From: Chiloscyllium plagiosum
Lineage: Eukaryota
Reading direction: 5' to 3'
Assembly (NCBI RefSeq): GCF_004010195.1
Contig: NC_057718.1
Span: forward strand, 65,680,919-65,744,918
Length of the DNA stretch: 64,000 nucleotides
Shown here: piece after piece, positions 1-59,254 of the stretch
How the letters are laid out: every line of letters starts with the position of its first letter
Position numbering within the stretch: the stretch's first letter is position 1
Made by a program: the position numbers and the translations under genes
Notes under the pieces: generated by a model
Database searches by the model: none
Seen by the model: only the letters and a program-made list of their open reading frames with translations
What the model was told of the DNA's origin: nothing

Positions 1-258
1 AACGGTGTACATTGTTTTGCAAATGCAATTACTTTGATATGTGGATATGTATATAAAAATCTTTGTAATACATGATTCCCCAAGCAACCCATTTGTTCTG
101 AATACCTTTAATGCCCCTCTTGTGATTAACTGATAGAGCAACCTTGTTATAATCCAAAGGAAGTGTGAATGATCTCATGAGTGAACTGATGTTTACATTT
201 ATCAGACCACTGACCTAAGTTGTATGTGCATTGTTAGTTAGCTAAATCTTTAATGCAG

Positions 259-304
259 TGCATTCCGAAGGGACAGAGAAACTCTTAAAGGACATATTCA
301 ACTG
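259..304 (+). CDS. Putative penultimate coding exon of an unidentified gene (AFRRDRETLKGHIQL)
   Basis: Acceptor gctaaatctttaatgcag ending at 258, donor CTG|gtatca at 304/305. The frame is open and joins in phase 0 to the exon at 1232. No homolog recognised. Confidence 0.35.
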
Positions 305-5352: not shown

Positions 5353-5380
5353 TGGGGGGGGGGGGGGAAGGTGGGGGGGC

Positions 5381-14600: not shown

Positions 14601-14744
14601 GGAGTCTGGGGAAAGTGGACAAGTCGCATCTGGAAATGCAATTCATTGCGCTATATCACTGTGGGAATGATTGCAGTGAAAGGGGACAATTCCCAATTGA
14701 AAGATAGAGGTGTTGTAGAGACTGTTAGATAAGCACACAAATAA

Positions 14745-16208: not shown

Positions 16209-16483
16209 AAATTAAGTTAAAAATCACACACATGGGATTATAGTCCAACAGGTTTATTTGGAAGCTTGCTTTCAGAGCACTGCTCCTTTATTAGGTGGGT
16301 GTGAAGTATAAGATCATAAGACACAGATCCTATAAATTCTGTGAACTTATGAACTTATATTCCACAACCACCTGATGAAGGAGCAGCACTCCGAAAGCTA
16401 GTGCTTCCAAATAAACCTGTTGGACTATAATCTGGTGTTGTGTGATTGTTGCCCACCCCTGTCCAGCACCGACTCCTCCACAT
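16209..16483. mobile_element. Fold-back Penelope terminal element (family B), two inverted arms
   Basis: 16213-16330 is the reverse complement of 16335-16450; flanking ctgtgct at 16202-16208 and 16484-16490 is a candidate TSD. Confidence 0.8.
16369..16403 (+). ncRNA. Intact minimal type-I hammerhead ribozyme motif
   Basis: CAC-CTGATGA-A-GGAG(cagca)CTCC-GAAA-GC-TA-GTG: full core, 4-bp stem II, CAC/GTG stem I, palindromic AGCT helix III, NUH triplet CUA. Confidence 0.75.
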
Positions 16484-16665
16484 CTGTGCTGTATTGTTCT
16501 GTGTTCATAGATAATGGAAGGGAGCTTGGAGTTCGAGGAGACTGACATTCTAACAGGTGACAGTCACTCCAATTTTTTATATGGGGGGGGGGAAGAGGGT
16601 GTAGGGCTATCAAGGGCATGGAAATGTGCAAAGCCTTGGCCTCTGGGATTAAATAGTGATATTCT

Positions 16666-22715: not shown

Positions 22716-23030
22716 GTGGCATGGTGGCTCAGTGGTTAGCACTACCACCTCACAGCACCAGGAATCTGAATTTAATTCTAGCCTTGGACAACTGTCTCTG
22801 TCGAGAGTGTGGTGCTCGAAAAGCACAGCAGGTGGAGCATCCGAGGAGCAGGAGAATCAACATTTCAGGCATAAACCCTTCATCCTGACTCACACTCTCC
22901 ACTCTGATCTCCAGCTCTTTGGGTGCTCCGGTTTCCTCCCACAGTCCAAAGATGTGCAGGTTAGGTGGATTGGCTATGCTAAATTGCCCTGTAGTACTGA
23001 TGGATGTGCAGGTTAGGTGGGTTAGCCTTG
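22716..23030 (+). mobile_element. HE1-type SINE with nested Penelope family A terminal piece (22801-22915)
   Basis: The SINE head and V-domain are split by gagagtgtggtgctcgaaaagcac…cttcatc plus a short inverted arm. Confidence 0.8.
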
Positions 23031-25830: not shown

Positions 25831-26020
25831 GTTATGAGGAGAGATTATACAGATTAGGCATGTTTTCTATAAAATTTAGAAAGTTAAGGAGTGATCCGAT
25901 TGAAGACTTCAAGGTATTAACAGGAAAAGATGGGCTAGATAAATTATTTCCACTGGTTGACGATTCTAGAACCAGGAGATGTATCTGAGAATTATGGGCA
26001 AACTGTTCAAGAGTGACATT

Positions 26021-38149: not shown

Positions 38150-40770
38150 GGAGAAAGGCTAATTTTGACAGTATTAGGCAAGAACTTTCTAAAGCTGATC
38201 GGGGGCAGATATTTGCAGGTAAAGGGACAGCTGAAAAACAGGCAGCCTTCAGAAATGAGATAACAAGAGTCCAGAGACAGTATATTCCTGTTAGGGTGAA
38301 AGGAAAGGCTGATAGGTGTAGGGAATGCTGGATGACGAGAGAAATTGAGGGTTTGGTTAAGAAAAAAAAGGAAGCTTATGCCAGGTATAGGCAGGATAGA
38401 TCGAGTGAATCCTTAGAAGAGTATAAGGCAGTAGGAGTATACTTAAGAGGGAAATTAGGAGGGCAAAAAGGAGACATGAGATAGCTTTGGCAAATATGGT
38501 GAAGGAGAATACAAGGAATTTTTACAAATACACTAAGGACATAACTAGAGAGAGAAAAGGCCCCTCAAAGATCAGCAAGGTGCCCTTTGTGTGGAGCCGC
38601 AGGAGATGGGGGAGATACTAAACAAGTATTTTGCAACAGTGTTTACTATGGAAAAGGACATAGAAGATATAAAATGTAGGGAAATAAATGGTGACATCTT
38701 GAAAAATGTCCATATTACAAAGGAGGAAGTGCTGGATGTCTTGAAACACATAAAAGTAGATAATTCCCCAGGACCTGATCAGGAGTCCCCAAGAACTCTG
38801 CGTGAAGCTAGGGAAGTGATTGCTGGGTTCCTTGCTGAGATATTTGTATCATCTATATTCACAGGGGCGGTGCCGGAAGACTGGAGGTTGGCTAACGTGG
38901 TACCACTATTTAAGAAAAGTGGTAAGGACAAGCCAAGGAACTGTAGGCTGGTGAGCCAGATGTCGGTGGTGGGCAGGTTGTTGGAGGGAATCTTGAGGGA
39001 CAGGATGTACATGTATTTGGAAAGGCAAGGACCGATTAGGGATAGTCAATATGGCTTTGTGCGTGGGAAATCATGTCTCACAAACTTGAATGAGGTTTTT
39101 GAAGAAGCAATAAAGAGGATTAATGAGGGTAGAGGGGTAGATGTGATCTACATGGACTTCAGTAAGGCGTTCGACAAGGTTCCCCATGGGAGGCTGGTTA
39201 GCAATGTTGGATCTCATGGAATGTGGGAAGAACTAGCCCAGGGGTGGGGAACCTGCGGCCTTAAGGCCTCATGTGGCCTTCTAGGCCATTGTGTGTGGCC
39301 TTTTGAATGAATCCAAATTTTGCAGAACAAATCTTTTATTTTTTATTAATATATTTTTTGTCCTTTATTATTTTTATTTTAATCTTAAAATGAATGTATT
39401 TAAAATACCAGAGAGTAAAACTGCAGACTTCCATGCTGCAACCAAATATTCAAATGCTTTCCTACAAAAAGCAGTCACAACAAAGTCATTAAAAGGTTAG
39501 TTAACTTTAGATTAACTTTTTTCCTTTTTTCCGTTAGTACATAGTAGTTAGATTTTTACAAAATAATGTGAATTTTGAAGAATATATAATTGAAGTTTCT
39601 TGGATGCGGCCTTATGCGATTACAACTAACGTAATGCGTCCTTCCAACATGAAAAGGTTCCCCACCTCTGAACTAGCCATTTGGATACAGAACTGGTTCA
39701 AAGGTAGAAGACAGAGGGTGGTGGTGGAGGGTTGCTTTTCAGACTGGAGGCCTGTAACGAGTGGAGTGCCTCAAGGATCTATGCTGCGTTCACTGCTTTT
39801 CGTCATCTATATCAATGATTTGGATGTGAGCATAAGAGGTGTAGTTAGTAAGTTCGCAGATGACACCAAAATTGGAGGTGTAGTGGACAGCAAAGAAGTT
39901 ACCTCAGATTACAACGGGATCTTGATCAGATGGGCTAATGGGATGAGGAGCGGCAGACAGAGTTTAATTCTGATAAAAGCAAGGTGCTGCATCTTGGGAC
40001 AGCAAATCTTAGCAGAACTTATACACTTAATGGTAAGGAGGTCAGGACTGTTGCTGAACAAAGAGACCTTGGAGTGCATGTTCATCGCTCCTTAAAAGTG
40101 GAGTCACAGGTAGATAGGATAGTGAAGAAGGCATTTGGTATACTTTCCTTTATTGGTCAGACTATTGAGTACAAGAGCTGGGAGATCATGTTGCAGCTGT
40201 ACAGGACGTTGGTTTGGCAACTTTTGGAATATTGCATGCAATTCTGGTCTTCTTCCTATCAGAAGGATGTTGTGAAACTTGAAAGGGTTCAGAAAAGATT
40301 TACAAGGATGTTGCCAGGGTTGGAGGATTTGAGCTATAGGGAGAGGTTGAATAGGCTGGGGCTGTTTTCTCCAGAGTGCCGGAGGCTGAAGGGTGAACTT
40401 ATAGAGGTTTATTAGCTCATGAGGGGCTTGGATAGTATATATAGACAAAGTGGTGGGGGAGTCCAGAACTAAAGGGCATAGTTTTAAGGTGAGAGGGGAA
40501 ATATATAAAAGAGACCTAAGGGGCAACGTTTTCACATAGAGGTAGTACGTGTATGGAATGAGCTGCCAGAGGATGTAGTGGAGGCTAGTACAATTGCAAC
40601 ATTAAAAGGCATCTGGATGGTTTTATGATTAGGAAGGAATTGGAGGGATATGGTTTGGGTGCTGGAAAATGGGATTAGATTAGGTTGGGATATTTGGTCG
40701 GCATGGACAAGTTGGATCGAAGGGTCTGTTTCCATGCTGTACATCACTATGATTCTATGACTCTATATGA
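38150..40770 (+). mobile_element. HER1/CR1 LINE, 5'-truncated, interrupted by a hAT MITE
   Basis: ORF 38591-39310 (PEDWRLANVVPLFKK, QYGFVRGKSCLTNL, YMDFSKAFDKVPH), then SKFADDTKIGG; tail (ctatga)n at ~40745-40770. Confidence 0.95.
39239..39670. mobile_element. Non-autonomous hAT (Charlie-type) DNA transposon, 432 bp
   Basis: TIRs CAGGGGTGGGGAACCT and AGGTTCCCCACCTCTG (15/16 match); perfect 8-bp TSD AACTAGCC at 39231-39238 and 39671-39678. Removing the element restores the LINE sequence. Confidence 0.93.
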
Positions 40771-41419: not shown

Positions 41420-44400
41420 AGGTTGCTGCCATTTTGAGTGATTGCTCGCAAACTCCAACCAGTATTAGATCTCTATAATGTCAAAACATCTTGGAGAATT
41501 TCAAAGTGCTTTTGAGGACAAAGAAAACATTTCAAAGGACTCTTGGCTATTTGAGAGCTGAGAAAACAAGACTGGATAAGAGAGCTCCTTTTCATCCATC
41601 CAAGAAATGGGCTCAATCCATTGGAATAATTTTGTGAGGGGTTTTACCTAAATGTTTGTTGATCTGCTTTCAAGGAAGATCTTAGTGTTTCTGTGGTCCT
41701 CTGTTGAATCTGGAGGGTACAGTGGAGAGATTGCTCACTGAATTTTTCAATTGCTCTGTATGCCTCTGATACATAGTGCAGCTGTCTTTGCAGTGCAGCG
41801 GTGTAATGATGTCAATTGCTCTGTACACTAGCGGTTTTGTTGATTTTCTTTATTGTTGAAGGCTCCCCTGTCGTAGCTGTTAAGAAATCTAAGCTGCTCA
41901 GACATTGGATATCCTCATCTTTGGTGGCCTTTTCAGAGAGGAGACTGTCAAGGAATGGGAAAAATTCAACATATTCTAGAGTCTGTCCTTTAATATGTTT
42001 GGGATTGGGAATATTTGGCTGATTAAGCTGATGACAGTTTTGGTTTTGGCAATAATCAAAGAACAGGCCAAATATCATAAATCTGCAAATTGAAGAGTGG
42101 CACAACTGAACTGGGAAGAACTGTAATGTTTCACAAGCAATGTATAAATATATAAAATTCCACTGAGGCTGCCCAAATCACCAATTCACCTGACTGACTA
42201 CTACTTAGGACAAAGGTCATTCACACCTCATTTTATCAGTAACAGCGAAATTATACATTTACTTTTAGCAAAAAAAAGGATGGATTTCCAATCCACTACC
42301 TGAGCCTTCAAAACCTCAATTACACACTCAATTAGAGTTAAGGCAGGCAAAGTCAAATCATTTGACATAAACTATGGTTAGAAATTATTAGAGGGGATGT
42401 TTTTAGAAGACTTCCAAAAAGTCCCCACATCAGAGTTTAGCATGTGAAATTAAAGTGTATGGATTGGGGACAGTATACTGACATGGATAGAGAACTGTTT
42501 GGCAGACAGAAAACAATGAATAGGAATAAGTTGCAGCAAGTGACTAATGGGGAACTGCAGGAATCAGTGCTTGGACCTCAGATAGCCCCAATCAGAGGGA
42601 GTGGTGAAAAGGGTGCACAGATGTGTTGTATTCCAGCTGCAGACTTCCAAGATGGTGGGTTTTTTTTCACATCCACACTGTTCCTCTGGATTTGGGAGGA
42701 AAAATAAATCCCCCTCCAACTTGGGAATGCAACAATTGTAACTATCTTCAGCCAGGGAGATAAATCATGCTGTGGACAATTATGAAACATTAATATCTTG
42801 TCAATAGTATCAACTGTCTTTGTGGATTCACAATTGAGAAATTACTCGTTTCCAGTGTTGAAGGATGGAATTCTCAAACTTAGAAAGAGAAACACCACCC
42901 TGCAAGCCCTGATGGTTTCAAACATGCTTTGTGTGTCATCATAGTCAACATATATTTGGAAATCTTGGGCTTTCTCTTCCAAACACATATCATTTGTCTT
43001 CTGGATTTGACTTTGGGCATTTGCCTTGAGCAGTGGGGATGCTACAGCTTTGCAATGTTGGGTTGTTTTGCCAAGCAATATCAGCTGCTATTTTCTTCCT
43101 CTAAGATATCACATATTTGACATTGTTTTCATCAAACTAGTCCTGTTTACAGCAGTGATTCAACCCAAAGGTCTGGACAAATGAGTCTTGTACAGCTGAT
43201 TTTATTCAATCACACTGTTCTGGATTTAAAATTGTGTGTGCATAGATTTTCAAGTTTGCTCATGAGCTGCATTTGTTCAGGCTGCTTTACAACAGAATAT
43301 TAATTTTTAAATTTCCTTTTGAACCTTTGGATGTTGCAATGTCTTGGTGAAAGGCAGATCTCATTGCAGATTAACAAATCAAAGATCTATCGAGCAGGCA
43401 TCAGCCACTTGCGTGAACTTGGGATATAACCATCACATAGATCTTTGACTTGAATAATGACATTAGTCAGGATATGAAATTGTTTTGATGTCAGATACCT
43501 CCATGTGATTTTGTATTTGACCTTCCAGCAATAAAGTGTGTTTGAGATTTGAGGCCATGCTGAACACACTTCATCGTCGAAAAGTGTGGCACTGGAAAAG
43601 CAAAGCGGGTCAGGCAGCTTCTGAGGAGCAGGAAAGTCAACATTTCAGGCATAAGCTCTTCATCAGGAACATACTTCATCACCAAGAGAGCAATATTTGC
43701 ATTGTTCTGCGCCAGGCATCAGAGTGATAACCACCCAACCCTAGCATTAAAGTGTGTAGAAAGATTATCCTCTTTTGGAATGGCTCTGAGGATCCATCAA
43801 GGTCAGAATAGGACTTTTTGTTTGCATTTTCACCTGAGTCAATCCTTAATTGTTGATGACACTAGCATTTTAAAACGAAAAACCCTTCTCTTTCACTTGT
43901 ACAATTGGGGGGTTGTGACAGCGCATCCAAAATCCCATTCCAGTTGGCTGACAAATTGAACAAAGTTTGATGTCAACCTTTTTTTTTCCCGAGTCAAAGG
44001 TTTATCCTTCTGCTTGTTCTTTCAGCTTCCCCACCCGAGGAGGATGGTTCTCACTGATAATGCCAATGTCAATTCTGCAATATCTTGATGGCTAATATGA
44101 TACAAATTACAGTTTGTCTTTTTGGATAGTTAGTCTTGAAGATCATTCATGAATGTTTTCACATTACAAGTTGCAAAATTTAGAATTTCTTTCTTTGTGC
44201 ACAAAAGATAGTGATTCCTCAGCCAGTATTCCCCAACAAAGAGAAAATGTGACTGTCTGCTCTTCAGCCACCTTCTCTAGGCACTCCCCATTTGGGTTCA
44301 GTAACTACCAAAAGACACCTCTACCCAAACACGGGTGTCCAACAACTTCCATGTATTTGGTGTCCATAAGAAGGTTCTCGACTGGAAAATCCCACTTTCA

Positions 44401-44540
44401 CAGTCTTATTGCCAATGCCAATTCTCCATGGCCACAGGACTTGACAAATGGACCCCAGGAAAAGCTTCTGTGACTTTGGTTAATGTGGGGGAATCTTGGG
44501 ACACCATCTTTGTGCATCCAATCTTAACAGGTTGATGGTC
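41420..44540 (-). mobile_element. Ancient RTE-clade LINE fragments, with one inverted block and a CR1 piece at ~42380-42585
   Basis: LEYVEFFPFLDSLLSEKATKDEDIQ (41812-42105 -), EEKAQDFQIYVD (42842-43078 -), and WIWEE…NATIVTIFSQGDKSCCGQL on + at 42690-42800. Confidence 0.65.
43576..43666 (-). mobile_element. 91-bp Penelope family A mini-insertion
   Basis: Minus strand cctgatgaagagcttatgcctgaaatgttgac…cacacttttcgac; 14-bp TSD gaacacacttcatc/gaacatacttcatc (43562-43575, 43667-43680). Confidence 0.8.
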
Positions 44541-44988
44541 AGGTGTAATGCCAGAGTTCAAAAACACTGGGCAGAGAATGAATGGACCCCGTGTGAATGC
44601 TTGGTCTGTGCTCATCACTTTCTAAGAAAATTCAGAACGTGATATCACAGGGAAATAATGAGTATTGGGGTGGCTTAGTTTTTAAGGCTCCGGCTCTTCT
44701 ACCCCCTCAATCCCTGTACTTGCCTCATTCATAGTCGTACTTCTTATCACTGACCAGAGAACAAATTGGAAGATCCTATTTAAGGAGGTGACTACCTCTT
44801 GGAATGGTGTGTCCATGTACCATGCCTCTTCCCTGATACTTCGCAGAGTCTGTATTCACAAACCTATTGTTTCCCTATGATATCACATGTTAAATTTTCT
44901 CAGAACATGATGAGTCCACAGACCAAGCGGTTCCACATGGGGTCCACTCATTCTCTGACCACTGCTTTGGAACTCTGGCATGACACCT
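44541..44988. mobile_element. Unclassified MITE-like element with ~120-bp terminal inverted repeats
   Basis: 44541-44660 aligns to the reverse complement of ~44866-44988 at roughly 80% by eye. Confidence 0.65.
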
Positions 44989-45084
44989 TACTCAAATCTG
45001 ACCACCAATCTCTCAAGATTGTTCAAGAAATTCAAAATTCTTGCAGCTTCAGAATGGAGGAGCGAACTGAGGGTACAGGAAGCT

Positions 45085-46650
45085 ATCAACTTGGGAGCAG
45101 TAATAAAAATGCAGGTGGTGGGGTTAAGTATAGTCAGGGAGATAGACACGGATCTCTGCAACCAAGAGTGAGAGAGAATTCAGAAGGTTGTGTTGCTTAC
45201 CAATGCTAGAGTGCAGGGTATCTGCTCTGAGCAGGAGAATATCTTGCAGTAGGAGGGTGAGAATATCCAATTGTTGTGGTCCATGTAGGTGCCAATAATA
45301 TGGTTAAAACTAAAAAGAGGCTCTGCTGAGGAAGTATAAACACCTAGGGGATACATTTAAAAAGCAGATTCTCAAAAGGTAATACATTCTATATTAATTC
45401 CTGCCCAACATGCAAATTGCCATTGGGTAAACCAGAATAGGGAATTAAAAGATTGATACAATCAATAGCTTTCAATTCATGGGGAAAATGAGAGCAGAAC
45501 CGTTGACTCAGTCTTATCTTAAACCATGCTGGGAACTAGTGTTTTAGTGAATTGTATAAATAGGTTGGTGGAGAGAGCTTTGTACCAAATAATGAATGTA
45601 AAGAAGCAAATTGGAGAGAATGTGATAAAATAGGGGACAAGACAAGAGAGCATGGTATAAGTAAGGTAAATGATAATCAGAACTTAGCAGGTAGCAAGAG
45701 TATACAGTTTTATTGTGCCTGCAGATAAGGCTCTGGGAAAGGGAGGGAGAATTAAATTGATGGCTTTGTATCTGAATGCACTTACCATTCATTTAAAAAA
45801 GGATGAATTTATAGCTGAATTCAATAAAAATATGTCAGATCTCATTCACAAGAAGCATGGAGTAGGGAAGTCTTGCTGCAATTGAACGCCCCATTCGTGA
45901 GACCACATTTTAGAGTAGTGTGGATAGTTTTGGCCTCATTATTCAAGGAAGGATATGTTTTCATTGCGGATGCTTTAGAGAAGGCTCACCAATACTCATT
46001 CCTGGAATAAAGGGCTTTCTTAAAAGGAAAAATTGAGCAGATGGGTTTTATACTCATTGGAGTTTAAAATAATAAAGCGATGTTCTTATTGAAGCATAAG
46101 ATCTTAAAGGAGTTTGACAGGATAAATGTTGGGAGGATGTTTCCTATCTTAAGGGAATCTAGATCTAGGGACCATAGTTTCAAAATAAACAGTCTCCCAT
46201 TTAAGATGGAGATGAAATGAAACCTCTTCTCTTAAAGGGATGTTGGTGTTTGGAATCTTTTCTCCAGAGAGCAGTGAAGGTGAAATCATTGAATACATTC
46301 AAGACTACATTAGATTTTTGATCTTCAAGGGGAAAGTGAGGACTGCAGATGCTGGAGATCAGAGCTCAAAAATGTGTTGCTGGAAAAGCGCAGCAGGTCG
46401 GGCAGCATCCAAGGAGCAGGAGAATTGACGTTTCGGGCATAAACCATTCCTGAAGAAGGGTTTATGCCCGAAACATCGATTCTCCTGCTCCTTGGATGCT
46501 ACCTGACCTGCTGCGATCTTCAAGGGGAGTTAACAATTTCAGGGTAGACAGGAAAGTGGAGTTGAAGTCCCGGTCATATCAGCCATGATCTTATTGAATG
46601 ATGAAGCAAACATCAGGAGTTAACTGCCTAATCCTGCTCTTATTTCTCTT
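45085..46650 (+). mobile_element. Old CR1 with ORF1 esterase remnant, ORF2 start and 3' end; most of ORF2 missing
   Basis: VVGLSIVREID and PIVVVHVGANN (SGNH-like ORF1), LMALYLNA at ~45760, then directly VRPH…FWPHY and the tail. Confidence 0.65.
46334..46514. mobile_element. Fold-back Penelope family A mini-element with hammerhead motif (46450-46477 +)
   Basis: Inverted arms; CTGAAGA-A-GGGT(ttat)GCCC-GAAA-CATC; perfect 14-bp TSD gatcttcaagggga (46320-46333, 46515-46528). Confidence 0.88.
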
Positions 46651-47824
46651 GTTAACCTTTCTGTAATCCATTAAACCCAGCAGGATGATGTCAAGGAACA
46701 CTTGAAATCCAATATGCAGTCTTCAAAAACTGAGCCTGCATCTGTACCGATGTTCATTCAGTTTTGGCTTTTCAAGCTGGTCTTGGATTTGACCCGCACA
46801 GCATCGATTTGAATAATAGAACTAAAAGGACATGATCTACGCCATTCACAGACTCAGTTGTTCTCATTTCCACCAAACTAACTGTCAAATTAGTTCAAAA
46901 TCTGACATAATTAGCATAGCTGAGTAGATGATGCTGAAAACCACTTGCAGCCTCCACTGCTCCAAATTAGTTCAATATTTACATTAAGAATCAGTCTTAT
47001 GCACATCCCTCTGCCACTTCTAGGGTTTGTCTCCTCATTTCCTCAGTACCCAGAACAATAATCAATCAATCAGTTGTACAACTGGAGGGCCACAGTTGAT
47101 ATTTGATGCTCTGTTGCTCATATATGCTATTCCATTTTAGAATTCTACTTGCTTTGATAACAGCCACTGCACATTGGCAATTGTTGAATAGTATGCATTT
47201 GCTTCTGACTGTAACTATGTCAACAGTGCCGTGAGGTACACATACCACACTTTCTGGCACAATACATGTCTGCTACATCATTTCTATTACTGTTGGCCCT
47301 TTTATAAGAGTTATTTAATATATGTTACACATCACTGGTTGCTCATTCAGGTCAATGTCCTCTTCCCCTGTAACAGTATTTCTGAGTGTAAGCAAATTAC
47401 ACCGAGTTTCTGAATTTCTCATTTATGTAAGTTAGAAGCACTAGACCTCAAAACAGTTCCATTTAATTTCTTTCTGCTCTGTCTTGTGTACCAACACAAT
47501 TAGCACCCCATCCCACCCCCATAACATCAAATCACCAATACCTCCCAACAACTCTCAATGCTTAATGTCAACTAGGGTGTATGGATGTAATCTTGGAGAT
47601 TGCATCACATGGGATCCTCATGTCAGTTGTCTTGTTCCAGCATATTCTGTTCTCGCCTAATTATACCCATCCACTTTAAACCAATATAGACTTGATTTGT
47701 GCAAGACATGACCTGAAATTCTTCTTCTATATTAATTGCCAACTGAGTAAACTTTTCTGGTGAAAACAACACCTTGTGGAAACTCCACCCCGTATATTGC
47801 TCCCTTTTCCTTTTGTAAATGTTT

Positions 47825-48610
47825 TGCTTTATTGTTCACCAGCAGAGTTTTGGTGTCACTTACGAGGGTAGCATTAATTGCTCACTTCTAACTGCCATTT
47901 AGAAGGTATGGTTGATGAGCTGCCTTCTTGAACCACTGCAGTCCACTTGCTATAGATACATCCATGGTACTTTAAGGTGGGAGTTGCGGGAGTTTGGTCT
48001 AGTGACAGTGAAGGAACAGCAATATCATTTGCAGCTTGGATGGAAACTTGCAGATGGATGTGTTCCCATGTTCCAGCTGCCTTTGTTCTTCAAGGTGGTA
48101 GAGGTTGCAGAGTTTGCTGTTGGACAAACCTTGATGAGTTATTGGAGTATATCTTGTGATTGGTGCCAACTGCTGTTTATGTGCTGGTGATTCAGGCACG
48201 AAGCAAGCAGGCTGTATTGCCCTGAATGGTGTTGAGCTTCTTGAATATTGTTGGAGTTGCAGCTATCCATGTAAATTGAGAATATTCCATTACAGTCCTG
48301 ACTTGTGCCTTGTACCTAAAGGTTGAGGAACCAGGAGGTCAGTTAACTGCTGGAGAGTTTCCAACATTTTGACACGTCTTGTAACAAAGTTATTTTATGG
48401 TTGATCCAGTTAGTTTTTTGGCCAATAATGGTAAGCCCAAAATGCTGATGTTGGAGAATTCAGCAATTGTAATATTGTTGAAAATGAAGGGGAGGTGATT
48501 AAATACTCTCATTGGAGGTAGTAATTGCCTGACATTTGATATTATTTGCTATTTATCAACCCAAACAGAAATGTTACCCTGGTCTTGCAAATTACAAATA
48601 GGACTGAACA
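47825..48610 (-). mobile_element. Old L2/CR1-group LINE 3' fragment
   Basis: Reverse complement of the 19800-20095 type tail plus upstream YKAQVR-like ORF2 sequence. Confidence 0.7.
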
Positions 48611-51600
48611 CTAACCAACCATCAGCAGATTAAAATAAATGAATCAACATCTGCAATAGTGTTCATTGCAAATAGATATTTCTGACTGGGCCGAGTTATC
48701 AAAAGTAACAGGATATATGAGCATTAGCAAACCTACTATTTGAAAAGACACAGTAGAATTTGTCTATCTGTAAGAACAGAAAACATTTTTGAATGTCCAC
48801 TGGAGGCTGTGATGAGCATCCATCAAGCACAGTACAAGTCAACATACATCTCCCAAATCCCCTCAGCTTAATTTCCTATTGTGATAATGGTTTCAGTATT
48901 TTAGTGCACAGTACTGCATAAATATTAAAGAAACACATATTATTCAAGGCCACTGCAGCTTTTTAAAAAAATCTGCTCTGTCACTTCCTGTAGTGATTAC
49001 ATTAAGTTCTCCAATTCACATTATTTTACAAAGTGCAACATAGGTGCAGGAGAATCCAGTAACTACTGATACTGTGGGAAGTGGATACTTGAGGACATGT
49101 CAGTTCTTTTGCTACAAATTGCCTTGCTTCTCCATGGTCTTAATAGCTTTTTGTACTTCCTGATTTGCAACAACTCATCGAAGATAACCACTCAGATTGC
49201 CATTAGCCACATGGTACAATGCACTATTCCCCTAGCATTAGTAAAGAGAAGTGTTGTGGTGAATACTTCACTATGAAGTAACAGCTGTTAGAAATGCAAG
49301 CTGGAACTAAGCCGTTCAGTGTTTGTGGATCAGAGTTTGTACCCATTGCTGTGAGGGTCATGATGCGATTTTCCAGTACCCCATTTGGATTACTATGTTA
49401 AAAATGTTCAATTTTCAGCAGGAGCAACTATGGATCAAGCCTTGTAACTACATTTTCTAGTGAAAATATATCATGTGGAGCACCAAAAGCCTTCAGCAGA
49501 CTGGGGTAAGTGTCATATTTTATAACCAAGAATTTACTGCAAAGGTTGGCTTTGTGAAACACTCTGCTTCTACATTACATTAACAATCAAAGGGCCACTT
49601 TAATAGTTTGGTTTGCTTTGTGCTTTTAGTCGAACATGAAAAGGGTGTGTTCTCACTCAAGCTCAGAGAGAATGTTATGTGCACTTGTTAGGGAAGTCTA
49701 GGTAATGCTGTCATTCCATGTTGTATTAAAGCTGCTGGTTAGAGACGTGATCTGGTGAGACTTCATGTATGGAGTCACTCATTCCCTTCCATACAGAATC
49801 AAAAATATGATTCTCCAGTATCTTTTTTCCAGCAGCACAAACAATGGTGGGAGGGCTAGCATCAATACCTTCTTCAATTTCCAGTCATAATGGATATTAT
49901 TTCATCATAACAATATATTTGTTTTAAAATAATAATTAAATTTTCAAAGTGCAACTGAAGAGAATTACATAAATAGAGATTAAAATGTGACAATAAAAGT
50001 AAACTGAGCAAAACCAAAGCATATACAAAACTCACCTTTCTATTATCAGGCAGTTATACTAGATTCAGTTCCCTTTTAATTACAAGGAAGTGTTTAGTTC
50101 CTTTAAAAACATTTTTCATTCCTAATTATAATAAATTGTTCATAAAATATATATACTAAACATAAATATAACATATTTTCTAGTGCATGGCACTATGGTT
50201 GGCTCATATCTGGTGCATGGTTGTTTAACTCTTTTGTCCAGAAAGGCCAATGCTCAAAATAGACAACAACAACTAATGGATTACGAATTGTTATGTCCAA
50301 GCAAACGTAGATCTGAATACTTGTATGTTTTAGAGTCCATATTTAAAGACTGCTTTACATTGCTAACAAAATATTGATAGAGTGTGCTAAAGTTAACTGT
50401 TTAAATTTGTGTTGCCTGTGTCTCAGTCTGTCTTTGGTTCTCTCTCTCTGTCTAATACTAACCTATTGCTTCAAAGAACATAACTGTAACTTTAATATTG
50501 TCTCTTAAATCAACTAAAAACACAAACCAGGCTACACTAGTTTTTTTGAAGCTTTGAAGCACAATGTTTTGAGTTACAGATTATCTTCTATTTCCAGCAA
50601 TGTAACAGGCATAAAATGGACTATTTGAGTCAGAACAAATCAGAAACAAATGCTTAATAATCAATAGTCTACAATATCGAATACATTTTGCATTTTGAAA
50701 GTTCAGTTTTTATACTGAAAGCCAAACAACGTACTAAATAAAAATAAACACATTTTCTTTGTTTTGCTTCTGTATCAAACAGCAAATTATTTAGAATTGT
50801 TGAATAAAAAAATACTAATTACGATTATAAAAATGTAAGCACAGAAGGAGCCCAGTGTAACTATTCCACTGTTAATTCCATTCCAGACCTGTTCTACTTC
50901 ACTGCTCCTGCTTCACAATTACTATATGCTTCAAGATATCCAGGTTCCACTTCCATTGAACTAAATTACCTTAATTAACCATTTGCAATAACATTCTATT
51001 TTCCAATAATGTTTTGCATTAAAACTACTTTAAATTAATCTAGTTTGACGCTTCAGGCATATATCCTTCAATTGTTATTAAAATCACCAACCAACAGAAT
51101 TACTTTCTGCCCATGTACTTAGGTGACAAATGTCACCGTTTAGTATGAGTGTGGCTGATCATAACTGTCCGGAAAGTGCTTGCCAATGTCTGATTGAAAC
51201 TGAAAGCAGTTAGCATTGTTAAGGTTATTTTACATCTGTATCAAAATCAGTTTCTGGAATGTGACATCAGAGCACAGTGGCACATGGGTATTAATGGATC
51301 CTTTTGGAACTCCTAATGTATTGCCCATAGTAAGTTACATGAGACAAAGAGTGCAAAATGAAATTCATTATTCTGCTAAAGTGAATTCATGTCCCTAAAT
51401 AAATACAGGCTGAAATGGTCATTCAAATTTAAATTCAGTTAGGCTAAATTTTATTTGCAACACAATCTGGGATGAAACCTCAGTTTCTCTATACAGTACT
51501 GTATTCTTAATGATAAGGGAGGGCAAAAGATCATAAAAAAAAATTGTAGAGGAGCTTATATGAATTGGAAGCAATAAAAGTAATCACTGTGTTTGAAATA

Positions 51601-52399
51601 GATGGTACAGAACCGTGTACTAACTTCAACATGAGGAAAATTAATGGAATCAACATGAGACCGAAAACAGAAGAGGATGTTCATTAAATAAGTGACTAAC
51701 AAATGATGACCAACTTAAGAGATTTTATGAGCAAATAGCATCTTAGGGAAGCCATTAAATGCAGTGCAAATGTATGGTTAAACAGAAATAAAATTTTTTA
51801 GCAATACCATTGAACAATTTTCTTTGAATGATCCTCAAATACTTTCTTAACAGCCAAGTAATTGCAATAATTATACTCCTCAGAAATATGGATCATTGTT
51901 TTGAGTGATGCTTATTACATAGGCATGAAATAACTTTCTGGAATTCACACCTACGTGATTATTCTGTACTGATTATGGTAATTGATGAGCAATGAATTTT
52001 GTTTATCTGACAACTCATACATTTGACAGATTGAAACATCACAAGGAGCTCCACAGGTGTGTAATTAGGAAAAAATTGACTTAATCAAACAAGGCGACAT
52101 TAGGACAGATGTACAAATTCTTGGTCAAAGAGCTCAATTTTCAGTCATGTCTTAAAAAGACAGACAAATGGTAAAGCCAAGAGATTTGAGATGGGAATTT
52201 CAGGGCTTGAGCCTAGATAGTTGAGGTCATAGCCTTTTGTGGTGCAGGTAATGGGAGATGTTGGAGGAATGAAGAGTTTTTAAGAAAAATACATGTAGTT
52301 TGGGAGAAGTTTAAATACTAGGATGAGAATTTGGTTGACTGAAATTCAACGTAAACCAGCTAGTACTAAGTTGATTGGACTTCGTCCAATATAATGATA

Positions 52400-52745
52400 G
52401 CAAAGAGCTTTTACTAATGGAGCATCTTCCATGACCTCAGCATGCTCATAATGCTTAATTGAATGAAACACATTTGAAGTCACTGTGATATATCAACAGA
52501 CTGCAGCCAGCAGGTCCCACAGTAAGGGATATTATATATGACCAGGGGATCTGTTTGTCATGTTGGGCACTTCTCTGCTTTTCTAAAACTGTGTCATGGG
52601 ACTTTTCTATTAGCTAAAATGACAGAGAGTCAAAAATCTCAAACAAAAAAGGTGACAACTCAAACAGTTGCAGCCCTCCCCTCATCTGAAGTGTTAGTCT
52701 GGATTATGCACAAATCTCTGGATTATGGTTTGAACTCAGACAGAA
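52400..52745 (-). mobile_element. Ancient Deu-domain-like SINE
   Basis: Decayed cagccctccc…gtgttagtctggattatg…ggtttgaactc head and gtgtcatgggact core, resembling AmnSINE1/LmeSINE1-type elements (recall). Confidence 0.45.
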
Positions 52746-53484
52746 ATTGTTCATGTTGTTTTGGATATTGGATCCACGAACATGAGCTGCTTGTGTTTTG
52801 TTGGCAAGATTGAGTCATTTTCTCCCTTGCAATCTAAAATTGGCTCTTATTCTGTCCGCAGTGTTTGTATTGCTGTACGCTCAGCCGGAGACTTGACTGC
52901 TGTATTCTGATTTGCAGCAAGTTCTAATTGGCTTTTATCCCTATGTTTGTGAAGCCGCATTGGCTCCCAATCCATCTGTACAGAGACTGCATCTCAATTG
53001 TAAAGAACATGATGCTAATGAAATCCAATTTTATGAAAAGGAACAAAACTATTGCAAGATCTGACACAGGAGGAGGAACCCTCCAATATTCCTACATGCA
53101 ACAGTCTAGGTAGAAGATCTGGCCACAGACACAGATCTCAGTTTTACATGAAATAGTTGAGTCACATCTGTTGTACTATGTGCGCCATCATGAAGCAATG
53201 AAACCAAACACATTATTCAACTTTCCTGTTGTATTGTGAGATAAACACTTCTCTCTTTCTCTTCCTAGGACTCTCAGCCATCCGGATATATTGCTCAAGC
53301 ATTAGCTGCAATTTAACACCAGCTTTGACATGGTTTCATTGAGCAATTTTCTTTGTTCTTTACCCCATTGCCAATTTTCCCTCTCCAATTTGAAACATGA
53401 TTTTAATTTTGGTACAATACATTTCTACAATTACAACAGAATAATTTTTTCAGTACTAACAAGAGCCATTTTTGGTTTTTGTTT

Positions 53485-53832
53485 ATCCATTTATGGAATA
53501 AGGGCATCACTGTCTAGGCCAGCATTTATTGCCCATCCCTAACTGCCCAGATGGCAGTTAAATGTCAACCACATTGTTGTGGGTCTGGAGTCACATGTAA
53601 GCAAGACCAGTTAAGTATGGCAGTTTCCTTCCCTGAAGGATGTTAGTGAACCAGATGTTACTTTCTGACAGTTGACAATGGATTCATGGTCATCATTAGG
53701 CTAGTTAATTCCAGTTATTGAATTCAAATTACGCCATCTGCCATGGCAGGATTCAAGCCTGTGTCCAGTACATTACCTGAGTCTCTGGATTAACAGTCCA
53801 GCAATAATATCATTATGCCATTGCCTCCCCCT
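53485..53832 (-). mobile_element. SacSINE1-like SINE, full length
   Basis: Reverse complement of the 23470-24135 host element. Confidence 0.75.
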
Positions 53833-54000
53833 GAAAGTTGTTAATGAGTCCTGGAATCTTTTACCTTTAATATTATCATTGTTTCTTCCCTCATGTATAC
53901 ACAGAATGAAACCCATCATGAAAATCTAATTTTGCATTCCTTTCCCTTTATAATGGATCCATTCCTGCTGTGTGACTGTATTTAGCAGATTACATCTGAA

Positions 54001-54185
54001 TAAAAAAATGTGGCACTGGAAAAGCACAGCCAGTCAGGAGGTATCTGAGGAGCAGGAGCAGAAGACTATAAGCTCTTCATCAGGAATGTCCTCCTGCTCC
54101 TCGAATGCTGCCTGGCCAGCTGTGCTTTTCCAGCACCACACTTTATGGCTCTGATCTCCAGCATCTGCAATCCTCACCTTCTCCT
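54001..54185. mobile_element. Fold-back Penelope family A mini-element
   Basis: Inverted arms; perfect 14-bp TSD agattacatctgaa (53987-54000, 54186-54199). Confidence 0.88.
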
Positions 54186-55388
54186 AGATTACATCTGAAC
54201 CCCATTAGAGAAGATCAGATGTAGCTAAAACGAACTGTCCAAAAGAACAGAGGGATAGCTCCTGAATAGTACTTTTCTTTTGCAGCTGTCATTGATTTTA
54301 AATGCTCCTATTCTTGCTCCAGTGTCTGTTACTGTCAATGAGGCCCAGAGGAAAATTGGAAAGGTCGCAAGAGAAAAGCAGGATTTCAACAGTAATGAAC
54401 TCCAAATTAGTATTGAATTTGTACATTTGAGATGACTGCATAATTTGAGAGAACAGCGCAGTTAGGAAAGCTTTCCATTCATAGGTCTTTGGGACCAATT
54501 CTGTGTGACAGTGAGACCTGCTCAAAACAAATCACGTGCCATCTCACCAGAGTTGGGCCCAATGTCCTTATAGGGTGGTTTGCTCTTGCTGTTGGGGCAA
54601 TTTAAAAAGCTTAGTAGGGAATTGGGAGCCCTGGTGTAGTACAGGGTGACCCAAACTGAGTGGGCTTGTGGGACGGGTGGTGGGATCCCACACTCCCTCT
54701 CAAGTGTGGCAGTAAGGACAACTCTGTAGCACAGACTCAGATAGGGCAGTCTTGAGATCAACAACTAGACTTTTTGACATGCAAATACAAAATTATGCTT
54801 TCTTGACTTGGTCCAGTTGTTGAGGCATAATGGAATCACTTCATATCCTGATCACTTTCCAGAAAATAATATTGCTACCCATCCTCCAACTCCCCCTTAC
54901 AGACAAATAGCACTTTGGTAAGAAGTAATAATGTATTAAATAAGATCACACCAGGAGGAAATTAGAACTAATTCAGGTATCTACACTTGTATGTAAATAC
55001 CAAAATGTGGCTTTGGTGAGCTACAGATACAAATATGTAAGTTGTTCAGTAAAGGTATGGAAAGAATGCAAGGAGGTGTGGCAATAGAAAGGGGAATATT
55101 ACTTTTGGAAAGAGAATATCCTGCAGTTGTCAAGGTCAATAGCTCTTTGGTTGCATTTAAGACACAATAGAGGTGCCTTTACTCAGTGTATTCTCTAAGT
55201 TACTGGCTGATAAGATATAGAAGAACAAATTTGAACAGAATATAGAAAGTTGAAGGAATTATGGGATAACAATAATAATAAGGACAGTGGCAGTATGAAT
55301 GTGAAGCTTTTTCATCGGCATTTAGAAAAAGGCTGTAATAAGTTCAGTAGCTGGATGGCCTAGGCAGAACCCAAGTAGAGTTAATGAG

Positions 55389-56087
55389 CAATAGACAATA
55401 GACAATAGGTGCAGGAGTAGGCCATTCTGCCCTTCGAGCCTGCACCACCATTCAATATGATCATGGCCTGATCATCCTTAATCAGTATCCTGGTTCTGCC
55501 TTATCTCCATAACCCTTGATTCCACTATCCTTGAGAGCTCTATCCAATTCTTTCTTAAATGAATCCAGAGACTGGGCCTCCACTGCCCTCTGGGGCAGAG
55601 CATTCCACACAGCCACCACTCTCTGGGTGAAGAAGTTTCTCCTCATCTCTGTCCTAAATGGTCTACCCCGTATTTTTAAGCTGTGTCCTCAGGTTCGGTA
55701 CTCACCCATCAGCGGAAACATGTTTCCTGCCTCCAGAGTATCCAATCCTTTAATAATCTTATATGTCTCAATCAGATCCACTCTCAGTCTTCTAAACTCA
55801 AGGGTATACAAGCCAAGTTGTTCCAGTCTTTCAGCATAAGGTAGTCCCACCATTCCAGGAATTGACCTCGTGAACCTACGCTGCACTCCCTCAATAGCCA
55901 GAATGTCTTTCCTCAAATTTGGAGACCAGGACTGCACACAGTACTCCAGGTGTGGTCTCACCAAGGCCCTGTTCAGCTGCAGAAGAACCTCTTTGCTTCT
56001 ATACTCAATCCCTCTTGTTATGAAGGCCAGCATGCTATTAGCCTTCTTCACTACCTGCTGTACCTGCATGCTTACCTTCATTGACTG
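55389..56087 (-). mobile_element. Young CR1 LINE 3' part
   Basis: ORF 55689-56081 ([11 protein letters not shown]…RRLRVDLIETYK); (tctattg)n tail; near-identical to 33640-34067. Confidence 0.95.
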
Positions 56088-56290
56088 GTGAGCAGGTTGT
56101 TACTGAGTAAGTACTGCTTGATAGTACTGTCAACTACCCTTTCCACCACTTTGCTGATGATCACAAGTAGCCCGATAGGGAAGTCATTCTCTGTTTGGAT
56201 TTGTCCTGCTTTTTGTGCACAAGACATATCTGGACAATTATCCCCCTTGCTGAAGAAGATTTGCAATGATATTCCCCAGCAATTGGTACT
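56088..56290 (-). mobile_element. LINE RT fragment (L2/CR1 group)
   Basis: IISKVVERVVDSTIKQYLLSNNLL in ORF 56078-56332. Confidence 0.7.
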
Positions 56291-57049
56291 AGATGAATGA
56301 TATAGACTTGAATGTCCAGGGCATTGTGTCAAAATGTCAGGTGTCTCAAAGCTTGGCTATATTGTGGATTGTGGTAAATTTTAAGAGAACATAGGTTGGT
56401 TAAGATTAGTTCATGAGTGGGCACATAAAATTTAAATGCAAAGATTATAAGGTGATACATTTTGATCACAAAAAATGGGGAGAGACAATTGAAACTAAAG
56501 AACGAGTCCAATTGTCAGAGTCGTCGGAACAGAGAGGCGCAGAGGTATATCAGCATAAATCACTGAAGATATGAGAGCCAGTTGAGAAAACATTTAGAAG
56601 ACATTTGGTTTTCTGAGCAAAATAAATAGGGTAATTCAGTGTAGAAGCAAGCAAGTTAAGATGAAAATTATCAGAAAATAGTGTCTCAACTGGAGTCTTG
56701 TGTCATTTCCAGTCAATGCACTTCGAAGAAAGTGGAAAAAGGTTTGGAGAAGGTTAAAAAAATATTTACTAAAATGATTCCAGGGATGAGGGACCTCAAT
56801 CACAAGGGTACGTTGGAGAAGATCGCATTGTTCTCCTGAAAGACATGGTTGAGAGGACATTTGATAGAGATACTCAAAATCATGAGAAAATTAGAGAGAG
56901 GCAAGACAGAAACTATTTCCCTTCGCAGATGGGTTGAAAATCCAGAGTACACTGATTTAAAGTGATTAACAAAAGTTTCAAAGATGCCACAAAAGGAAAA
57001 TATTTTTATGCAGAGGATGATGAGAAATTGGAATGCGCTGCCTGAGGAT

Positions 57050-57172
57050 TTAGAGATGCCGGTGTTGGACTGGGGTGTACAAAGTTAAAAATCACACAAC
57101 ACCAGGTTATAGTCCAACAGGTTTAATTGGAAGCACACTAGCTTTCGGAGCGTTGCTCCTTCATCAGGTGGT
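57050..57172 (-). mobile_element. Penelope family B mini-insertion
   Basis: Same family as 16365-16483; flanked by tgcgctgcctgagga / tgtactgcctaagga (decayed ~15-bp TSD). Confidence 0.85.
57136..57170 (-). ncRNA. Intact minimal type-I hammerhead ribozyme motif
   Basis: Minus strand CAC-CTGATGA-A-GGAGC(aac)GCTCC-GAAA-GC-TA-GTG. Confidence 0.78.
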
Positions 57173-57420
57173 TTGTACTGCCTAAGGAGTTTGTGATTCA
57201 ATTGTGGCTTTCAAAAGGGAATTGGATAAGCAGCTGAAGATGAGAATTTGCAGAATGATGAGGAAAGTGGAGGAGAGTGGAATTATACTTGTAGAATTCT
57301 TCTGTTTTCCATAGAGCAGCAAAGGTTCAGAGAGGTTTCACAATGCGGAGGTTGTACAAGGCATTACATAAATTGAAGACTTTCAGTTCTTCCTCCTTCA
57401 TTCCATGTCCTCTCATTTGT

Positions 57421-58195: not shown

Positions 58196-59254
58196 GGAGA
58201 AAGTGAGGACTGCAGATGCTGGAGATCAGAGTCAAAAAGTGTGGCGCTGAAAAAGCACAGCCGGTCAGGCAGCATCCAAGGAGCAGGAGAGTCAACATTT
58301 CGAGCATAAGCTCTTCATCAGGAATGTGAGGGGTATGAGTGCCCAAGGGGGCTGAGAGATAAATGGGAGGGGGTGCGGGGCAGGGAGATTGGTATCTAGG
58401 AATGTGATAGATAGGTGAAGGTGGGGGTGATGATGATAGTTAGGAAAGGAGGGTGGAGCAGATAGGTGGGAAGGAAGCTGGACAGGTAGGACAGTTCAAG
58501 AGGGCGGTGCCCAGTTGGAGGGTTGGATCTGGGATAATGTGGGGGTAGGGGAAATGAGGAAACTGGTAAAATCAACATTTATTCCATGTGATTGGAGGGT
58601 CACAAGGTGGAAAATGAGGTGTTCTTCCTCCATGCATTGGGTGGCTAGGATTTGTTGGTGGAGGAAGCCCAGGACTTGCTTGTCCTTGGCGGAGTGGGAG
58701 GGGGTGTTGAAGTGTTTGGCCACAGGGTGGTGGGGTTGTTTGCTGCGTGTGTCCCAGAGAGATGTTCTCTGAAACATTTCGCAACTTCTCCTCCCACTCT
58801 GCCAAGAACATGCAAGTCCTGGGCCGTCTCCACCACCAGATCCTAGCCACCCGATGACTGAAGGAAGAACATCTCATCTTCCACTTTGGGAGCCTCCAAC
58901 CTCACAAAATCAATGTCGATTTCACCAGTTTCCTCATCTCCCCTCACGTTATCCCAGATCCAACCCTCCAACTCGGCACCACCCTCTTGCACTGCCCTAC
59001 CTGTCCATCTTCCTTCCCACCTATTCCACTCTACCCTTCACTCCAACCTGTAATCATCACTCCCCCACCTTCATCTACCTATCGCATTCCCAGCTACCTT
59101 CCTCCCAGCCCCACCCTCTCCCATTTATCTGTCAACCCCCTTGGCCCCGCCCCTCCCATATTCCTGATGAAGAGCTCATGCTCAAAACGTCGATTCTCCT
59201 GCTCCTCGGATGCTGCCTGACCAATTGTGATTTTGCAGCATCACACTTTTTGAT
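58196..59254. mobile_element. Penelope family A element: two 3' portions joined head-to-head
   Basis: Both arms encode the GIY-YIG C-terminal region (PVAKHFNTPSHS…QVLG…LIFHL…HGINVDF); junction ~58781; hammerhead-like motifs at 58291-58321 (-) and 59164-59191 (+); flanking cctggcaca at 58183-58191 and 59255-59263. Confidence 0.9.

Follow-up and report, generated by a model that had tools for sequence, protein, structure and literature searches.

Four short insertions in a stretch of the Chiloscyllium plagiosum genome (the window: 64,000 nucleotides of NC_057718.1, positions 65,680,919 to 65,744,918) have breakpoints beside a hammerhead core, raising the question of whether such pieces are mobile units in their own right or parts of something larger. 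The initial annotation recognized them as Penelope termini, and both that identification and its coordinates were right (Table 1). It also took them to consist of nothing but the terminal segment of a Penelope-like element (PLE). This describes i1 and i4, which are solos, but i2 and i3 are head-to-head doublets of two arms, and i4 belongs to a family (B) unrelated to the family (A) of the other three. As for the TSDs of 14, 14, 14 and about 15 bp, the first three stand, i1 with one mismatch and i2 and i3 exactly, while the best TSD of i4 is 11 bp with one mismatch and scores 8, just below the calling threshold of 9. Positions within elements are counted from the C of CUGAUGA (0), minus being upstream and plus downstream.

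Table 1. PLE-derived insertions in the window (window coordinates; element positions in parentheses)
Feature	Position	Strand	Remarks
i1, left TSD copy	43562..43575		14 bp, with 1 mismatch to the right copy (43667-43680)
i1, family A solo, untailed arm (+90 to 0/-3)	43576..43666	-	position 0 (C of CUGAUGA) at 43666; hammerhead predicted to cut between 43639/43638
i2, left TSD copy	46320..46333		14 bp, exact; right copy 46515-46528
i2, family A doublet, tailed arm (about +119 to +9)	46334..46444	-	
i2, untailed arm (-5 to +64)	46445..46514	+	CUGA at 46450; predicted cut between 46477/46478
i3, left TSD copy	53987..54000		14 bp, exact; right copy 54186-54199
i3, untailed arm (+89 to -5)	54001..54088	-	small deletion damages hammerhead core
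i3, tailed arm (+30/32 to +125)	54089..54185	+	without hammerhead core
i4, left TSD copy	57038..57048		11 bp, with 1 mismatch to the right copy (57178-57188)
i4, family B solo, tailed arm (+116 to -6)	57049..57177	-	4-nt filler 57174-57177; CUGA at 57167; ATTAAA poly(A) signal ~40 nt downstream of CUGA
Long family A doublet	58196..59254		tailed arm (-) to about -460, untailed arm (+) to about -380; TSD core 9 bp; predicted promoter kept in both arms, TTTAT 58359-58363 (-) and 59124-59128 (+); initiator A 58325 (-) and 59160 (+)
Degraded family A copy within SINE	22800..22915		without TSD; untailed arm (-) ending at +2 (22884), then short sense piece of tail region
Family B doublet, longer arms	16214..16484		untailed arm -, tailed arm +; weak 13-bp TSD, 2 mismatches

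Parent elements and their hammerhead

Judged by sequence, the minis are end-pieces of two autonomous Neptune-type PLEs, families A and B. Like EN+ PLEs, these have a single ORF with RT followed by a C-terminal GIY-YIG, as read from the translations and from Pfam matches that stay below the cut-offs: the 509-aa frame of locus L171 gave RVT_1 (E 1.3e-5) and GIY-YIG (E 4.6e-4), both sub-threshold, and a GIY-YIG with internal cysteines is visible in the translations of both families. The Pfam search of the L174 frame returned no domain match, and the Pfam GIY-YIG search of the genome one uninformative match. The partial tandem with pLTR, the inverted copy and the optional tail are present as well (the tandem master is of family A), and the hammerheads of L197 lie 2831 nt apart. 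A CX2-5CxxC linker precedes the endonuclease in the A and B frames, a Neptune feature that Nematis shares according to PMC8557442; among vertebrate PLEs, Li 2026 (bioRxiv 10.64898/2026.07.22.740005) found only Neptune and Poseidon.

The pLTR holds a predicted minimal type-I hammerhead, its core located by pattern and consensus and its stems by pairing, with the cut placed at +28 in A and +29 in B and with U6 joints at +28 as indirect evidence. It has the minimal type-I core, the extra base after A9 and the palindromic stem III described for metazoan PLE hammerheads (PMC4209133). An Rfam scan of the window matched no hammerhead family and gave weak hairpin matches only, and RNAalifold found no stable consensus in a search for tail-stem covariation.

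Arm ends, doublets and jumps

Arm ends were counted in a genome sample of 1.26 Mb for 226 A and 72 B arms, after 13 arms of a third related family had been excluded and with 18 A arms that have N upstream handled as censored. Ends at 0 to -10 were found in 84 of the 226 A arms, against 2.8 expected from the upstream truncation rate (30x), and in 27 of the 72 B arms, against 2.1 (13x). The clustering of breakpoints beside the core that the initial annotation had noticed is thus far beyond chance in both families, and the histogram that it proposed as a check shows a pile-up rather than smooth truncation, with TSDs that fit a fixed stagger. The A ends have their mode at -4, and 9 of 17 young B minis end at -8/-9. 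Neither site coincides with the hammerhead cut; each follows a TATA-like motif by about 30 nt. In A this is TTAT(C/T/G) at -36..-34, which 73 of 93 long copies from divergent subfamilies carry, and in B a TATAAA-like motif at -40/-38, carried by 21 of 24 long arms. At its predicted start site family A reads TCATTCC, which matches an initiator, and the ORF-bearing tandems L197, L188 and L191 keep the TATA region before their 5' hammerhead. The B end site had been predicted at -8/-9 from TATAAA and BBCABW ahead of the count.

An artefact in which the ends mark where divergent subfamilies stop aligning (-5) was considered and rejected, since 56 of the 106 A arms checked have unique sequence or a short filler upstream, and the arm ends are set by the doublets that TSDs enclose. 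The minis stop at the predicted RNA start just ahead of the ribozyme, which makes them likely aborted first-step cDNAs, and the hammerhead would mark the breakpoint only because it sits directly behind the promoter. This layout is not universal, since the Penelope of D. virilis has a TATA-less promoter and an intron between start and hammerhead, as described in PMC2377424 and PMC4209133.

Every TSD-flanked doublet joins one tailed to one untailed arm (50/50 in A and 15/15 in B, 65 in total). Partner arms are 92.5% identical, compared with 85.2% between loci, and 45 of 49 junctions are distinct, that is, doublets are built anew at each locus. Among the A doublets with TSDs the longer arm is the untailed one in 24 and the tailed one in 10, with 16 equal. 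The arm ends put an inner RT start at +89 (A) or +80 (B) and an outer one (the "tail") at +125 or +118. TSDs flank 50 of 60 A doublets, against 8 of 298 swapped flanks, with 16 of 14 bp, 13 of 15 bp, 7 of 16 bp and 4 of 13 bp; a further 29 search loci yielded eight of 13-18 bp (mode 15). Solos have TSDs in 31 of 134 cases in A and 3 of 32 in B, rates that are underestimates because several long doublets went unrecognized in the pairing and were entered as solos. The constant nick stagger of the initial annotation holds within a family but not as one value: A lengths fit a simulated fixed stagger of 14 nt (chi-square p 0.85), with 13 and 15 rejected, and B lengths one of about 12 nt.

Template jumps leave a further record. 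Forty jump loci, chosen by likeness to two junctions, have A-4 as acceptor in 36, and 12 of these 36 joints carry an untemplated G before A-4, with no untemplated A or T; to go by the letters at these joints, the G is a cap signature. It is not enriched at plain solo and doublet ends (24/86 against 19/82 in controls) and stands at -5 in none of the 93 long A copies, in which no haplotype switching at -4 was evident, upstream and downstream haplotypes staying linked. Donors are confined to +195..203 and +245..261 (4/4 unbiased cases; the 40 selected loci), and genome-wide the jumps build retrozyme-like hammerhead tandems of 203 and ~260 nt. Where an upstream unit exists it starts at -5..-1 in 19 of 35 loci, the post-jump copy having stopped there again.

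In a public RNA run, X20, whose organism is perhaps another species and whose B poly(A) reads may stem from few host genes, sense B reads are polyadenylated at +57/+60 (350 and 428 reads), sites that follow an ATTAAA by 12-15 nt and precede both RT starts. AATAAA or ATTAAA is kept in 54 of 66 B arms; a poly(A) signal is found in only 11 of 190 A arms. Two sets of aligned RNA reads, mostly read-through of genomic copies, gave no RNA-start pile-up.

Which template, and which end?

The initial annotation had also offered a ribozyme-headed mobile RNA, and of this the jump tandems survive, built by jumps from the same 5' end, and a short transcript may still have served as template, while the self-propagating mini family does not survive: doublet junctions differ, minis and long copies are mixed in every subfamily, and the mini does not include the predicted promoter. 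Head-to-tail hammerhead repeats of 150-450 bp, as in non-LTR retrozymes, are not what the four window copies show, though jump tandems elsewhere do (L277, L238-L276). Nor do the window copies correspond to a unit between self-cleavage sites, ending at -4 and not +28, and no master is copied, since the joints vary between loci (31 distinct strings in 40). With the TATA-like motif outside the mini, distinct doublet junctions and weak tree clustering, they also differ from a SINE-like family with an internal promoter and its own master lineage. A dedicated short non-autonomous retrozyme-like RNA (-4 to about +200/+260), mobilised in trans as the main template, is accordingly unlikely, even though donors at just two places are what RNA 3' ends would give, a four-unit 203-nt array with a 15-bp TSD exists (L277), one young haplotype is richer in minis (32/39 vs 26/47), mini and long labels are slightly clustered on the tree (35 changes vs 41 shuffled, P 0.018), and i4 plus flank was copied once. 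Minis and long copies share haplotypes, the TATA region is absent from minis, junctions are locus-specific, and a circular template would not stop at -4, where the post-jump copy does.

That RT stalls or switches template at the folded hammerhead, as first proposed, would suit ends within 10 nt of the core in both families, but RT approaches the fold from the 3' direction (+31 to +16), where the hazard is 0.003-0.008 per nt against 0.085 at 0..-10; the ends lie on the 5' side of the fold, which RT had by then passed. A and B ends differ in distance from the core and agree in distance from the TATA-like motif, the segment folds with no unusual stability (tailed arms, z -0.4 to -1.4; i1, +1.0), and the untemplated G requires a cap, all of which leaves stalling scarcely tenable. 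Equally improbable is a template whose main 5' end is the hammerhead cut. The U6 3' end is joined to G+28 of family A in 2 of the best 30 U6 loci (L285, L302), so cut RNA exists and is sometimes copied, and the TSD-bounded A arms, 130 in number, include 14 with an end at +27..37 but 1 with an end at +21..26; about 12 of the 14 remain once internal deletions are removed by eye. However, CpG decay at +24..+28 can move alignment ends to +30, and most arms retain the whole core and end 30 nt further upstream; the cut-end route is at most minor, about 5-10% of arms, and as main route is refuted by the -4 mode. Fold-back, with the first cDNA or an antisense RNA priming itself (Arkhipova 2013), might instead produce the doublets, given that partner arms have private variants in common and that some junctions overlap by 1-3 nt or sit in stem II. 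This is very doubtful: cDNA fold-back requires a longer tailed arm, whereas the untailed one reaches further in 24 of 50 (up to -525), and the antisense version leaves the cap G and the arm ends at two sense RT starts unexplained.

A probable run-off scheme and its relatives

The minis are probably run-off (strong-stop) cDNAs from the capped leader of an autonomous element, primed from both cut DNA ends. The tandem master would be transcribed from its TATA/initiator promoter, whose start precedes the core by 4 nt in A and by 8-9 nt in B. As the TSDs suggest, the GIY-YIG nuclease would cut the two strands with an offset of 14 nt in A and of about 12 nt in B and leave two 3'-OH overhangs, of which one would prime at the inner and the other at the outer RT start; here the pattern in the DNA is observed, and the mechanism we infer with the aid of the results of Frangieh 2024. 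Each RT would cover just 90-130 nt up to the capped 5' end. Usually the cDNAs would then be joined, to each other or singly to the opposite target end, through microhomology or filler, which gives doublets and solos; more rarely RT would jump from the cap to either donor region and yield short hammerhead tandems. The least certain step is a jump to the 3' terminal repeat, which may give long, ORF-containing copies and for which the 93 long A copies gave no support (G at -5, haplotype linkage).

Retroviral minus-strand strong-stop DNA is likewise primed ~100 nt from the cap and runs off before the first strand transfer, and the retroviral terminal repeat is bounded by transcription start and poly(A) site. 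The proposed scheme shares the internal priming, the run-off and the start/poly(A)-bounded repeat, but its primer is chromosomal DNA, both ends prime, the run-off products are themselves inserted, and the transfer step is putative.

Known EN+ PLEs, as described in PMC3846280 and PMC8557442, share the RT and GIY-YIG ORF, partial tandems, head-to-head inverted pLTR copy, one-end tail of 30-40 bp, TSDs, and TATA and initiator-like motifs in the pLTR. Those accounts ascribe palindromes to antisense self-priming and the tail to endonuclease resolution, and report variable TSDs; here, in contrast, there are a strict tailed/untailed rule, ends at the predicted cap and a fixed, family-specific stagger. 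PAc, a Poseidon of Anolis, cuts and extends both strands in vitro, with RT starts at two tail borders (PMC11167929), and thus resembles these families in its two internal starts about 90-125 nt behind the hammerhead, in the use of both DNA strands and in not needing hammerhead cleavage; it differs in clade, and the ORF here starts at about +165, not in stem II. The main text on PAc does not link double extension to genomic doublets or mention run-off copies, and in the literature searched, double priming, run-off copies and cap signatures in PLEs are unstated, although Fig. S2 of that paper's supplement may bear on them. In PMC4209133, single motifs and pairs on opposite strands (100-700 bp apart), numbering in the thousands, are read as truncated PLEs and a circular cut RNA is proposed as template, whereas most copies here would come from uncut RNA. 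The 203- and ~260-nt tandems match animal non-LTR retrozymes in size and layout (PMC7229834), which the four non-tandem window copies do not, and their locus-specific joints at the cap point to RT jumps rather than rolling-circle copying; Li 2026 derives retrozymes from pLTRs.

As repeats, these elements belong to an ordinary class. How PLEs replicate and how pLTR tandems and head-to-head inversions come about are, though, stated as open questions in PMC2377424 and PMC3846280, and the minis of family A, of which 1.22 Mb contains 126 (72 of them TSD-bounded) and the genome an estimated 2-4 x 10^5, preserve to the base how far apart the strands were cut, where RT started at either site, where the RNA cap lay and where RT jumped between templates. 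A broader and more tentative idea, which we hold slightly less probable than its negation, is that PLEs replicate like a retrovirus on chromosomal DNA, with mis-aimed jumps as the birth of animal non-LTR retrozymes. If so, the pLTR would be a U3-R-U5 analogue, with a TATA motif, a repeat from cap to poly(A)/hammerhead cut and internal RT starts; a dimer would prime both ends of a fixed-stagger cut on one RNA and make strong-stop cDNA; and ORF copying would require a jump to the RNA's 3' repeat, failed jumps leaving hundreds of thousands of minis. From the minis follow exact predictions for the in vitro system already available; they also outline a concrete route by which PLEs could give rise to non-LTR retrozymes and, if they are indeed aborted first-step cDNAs, likely show how this poorly understood class copies itself.

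The insertions and their parent elements

Two Penelope-like element (PLE) families, called A and B, have left short insertions in the window, either as solos of one terminal arm or as doublets of two arms head-to-head. The initial annotation had placed four of them (i1 to i4), and all four places were confirmed. Its target-site duplication (TSD) of 14 bp is right for i1, i2 and i3, but that of i4 is 11 bp with one mismatch, not the roughly 15 bp it had given. Judging by its SINE and CR1 repeats, the host resembles a shark.

Repeats in the window (the names CR1 and tRNA-like SINE are those we presume to apply)
Position	Feature
16214-16484	Family B
22884	Family A copy
43576-43666	Family A (i1)
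46334-46514	Family A, doublet (i2)
54001-54185	Family A, doublet (i3)
57049-57177	Family B (i4)
58196-59254	Family A
5376-7229	CR1-type LINE fragment
14741-15974	CR1-type LINE fragment
25143-26959	CR1-type LINE fragment
38201-40758	CR1-type LINE fragment
23640	tRNA-like SINE
29797	tRNA-like SINE
57419	tRNA-like SINE
62947	tRNA-like SINE

Positions within arms are numbered on the element sense strand from 0, the C of CUGAUGA. The hammerhead is of the minimal type-I form, is predicted to cleave after position +27 in A and +28 in B, and is invisible to an Rfam scan of the window. Upstream, long copies of both families run into an ORF with reverse transcriptase (RT), CX4CxxC linker and GIY-YIG domains, and the short insertions are therefore pieces of the terminal repeats (pLTRs) of autonomous elements. 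That ORF fits Neptune/Nematis by the linker criterion (PMC8557442). One family A locus (L197) is a partial tandem, 2831 nt from hammerhead to hammerhead, and its ORF starts at about +165. The left ends of two long A copies coincide with this start codon, at +165 (L178:455) and +164 (L179:396; both oriented), possibly a second RNA 5' end, a splice site or a pause.

A complex family B insertion 54 kb off contains, at L035:7337-7504, a copy of i4 together with 46 nt of host DNA on its 3' side, TSD included (57001-57173; 96% over 168 nt), the switch point being an A-run; other matches to this flank in the tiled regions are 75-86% or short. Here a short insertion, flank included, was used as a template at least once.

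5' ends and template jumps

Six tiled regions, picked by position rather than content (1.264 Mb in total, window included, of a 3.56 Gb genome), yielded 254 A-like arms, with 13 third-family arms removed, and 78 B arms. That third related terminal family (e.g. L059 and L093, with matches to +45..+76) has only the middle of the core in common with A. Units without sequence upstream of -11 numbered 126 in A and 30 in B, with a TSD present in 72 and 9.

The clustering of breakpoints by the hammerhead described initially holds in this genome-wide sample. Among A arms whose 3' part is intact, 84/226 end at 0 to -10, with a mode at -4 (21 arms), against 2.8 expected from the end rate at -31 to -400; for B arms the figures are 27/72 and 2.1. 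Within a young B subfamily, whose loci were selected for reaching -5, 9 of 17 short insertions end at -8/-9. The ribozyme explanation once attached to this pattern was not upheld, since the cluster lies neither at the cut site nor at the fold's 3' foot, the expected halting point of a stalled RT. The ends fall about 30 nt behind a motif, at constant distance, while the intervening sequence diverges. This motif is part of a predicted promoter. Among the 93 long copies of A, 73 have it as TTAT(C/T/G) at -36 to -34; among the 24 long arms of B, 21 have a TATAAA-like form at -40/-38. A-4 of family A lies within TCATTCC, which we take to be an initiator consensus. We propose that the short insertions are probably run-off cDNAs of capped element RNA.

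Fusions of U6 to family A at G+28, exactly at the predicted cut (L285 and L302, 2 of the best 30 U6 loci), indicate that the family A hammerhead cuts. Many other U6 copies (L288-L308) pass straight into a tRNA-like SINE head or CR1-like sequence. Copying from the cut end is a minor route: among the 130 A arms bounded by TSDs, 14 stop at +27 to +37, versus one at +21 to +26.

Four loci in the tiles join +197..203 or ~+255 directly to -4. From two genome searches for such joints, taking the best 40 candidates from each, 40 loci were fetched. In 36 of them A-4 is the acceptor, and the donor shifts base by base (31 distinct joint strings among the 40). An extra G supplied by neither donor nor genome precedes A-4 at 12 jump loci, an untemplated A or T at none; the remaining 24 carry C in 22 cases (C-5 or donor possible) and otherwise a donor T or G. 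For LINEs, such a G is interpreted as copied from the cap (PMC3510499). Ordinary ends, where trimming and filler are common, show no excess of G (24/86 versus 19/82 in the control). Hammerhead tandems of 203 and ~260 nt arise from these jumps, and match non-LTR retrozymes as described in PMC7229834 and Li 2026. At L277:5982-6814, a four-unit 203-nt array and an inverted arm without the 3' tail segment share a 15 bp TSD; two unit variants alternate, and DNA-level duplication afterwards is likely.

3' ends, doublets and cut stagger

The 3' ends are bimodal, at +89/+125 (A) and +80/+118 (B). These are the two tail borders, at both of which RT starts in vitro in the target-primed system of PAc, a Poseidon element from Anolis (PMC11167929). 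Every TSD-bearing doublet (50/50 in A, 15/15 in B) pairs one tailed with one untailed arm. Partner arms are 92.5% identical, versus 85.2% across loci, and have private variants in common; 45 of 49 junctions are distinct. Fold-back on the first cDNA is excluded as the origin of doublets because the untailed arm is often the longer (in 24, against 10 for the tailed). Instead, each of two 3' overhangs would prime its own cDNA, giving the observed geometry. TSD lengths of A doublets fit a simulated fixed 14 (p 0.85), with 13 and 15 rejected. The median TSD is 14 in A and 12 in B (p 0.04), and among young B loci with a plausible exact repeat, seven gave a length of 12 and two gave 13.

Proposed run-off and its alternatives

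Over the A leader, reads occur on both strands, stem from read-through of genomic copies and show no pile-up of starts. No cap scar occurs among the long copies (0/93) and no haplotype exchange is evident at -4, so the transfer that would produce long copies is the least certain step of this reading; an alternative is that long copies are primed in a 3' pLTR with the RT starts retained. A dedicated short transcript is a less likely template. On a young B copy, the reads of public RNA run X20 (from organism C) are strongly sense-biased, and their poly(A) lies at +57 and at +60, 12-15 nt past ATTAAA; AATAAA or ATTAAA is kept at that site in 54 of 66 B arms. This signal may derive from a small number of host transcripts and from a different species.

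The element class and insertion shape are of a known kind (PMC3846280, PMC4209133 and PMC8557442). Our literature searches turned up no statement of the mechanism suggested by the ends, which would combine capped run-off, double priming, a fixed stagger, jumps yielding retrozyme-like tandems, and poly(A) addition before the RT starts. In a B mRNA polyadenylated at +57/+60, the 5' leader is the sole place with RT start sites, so that running off at the cap would be an unavoidable first step for RT.
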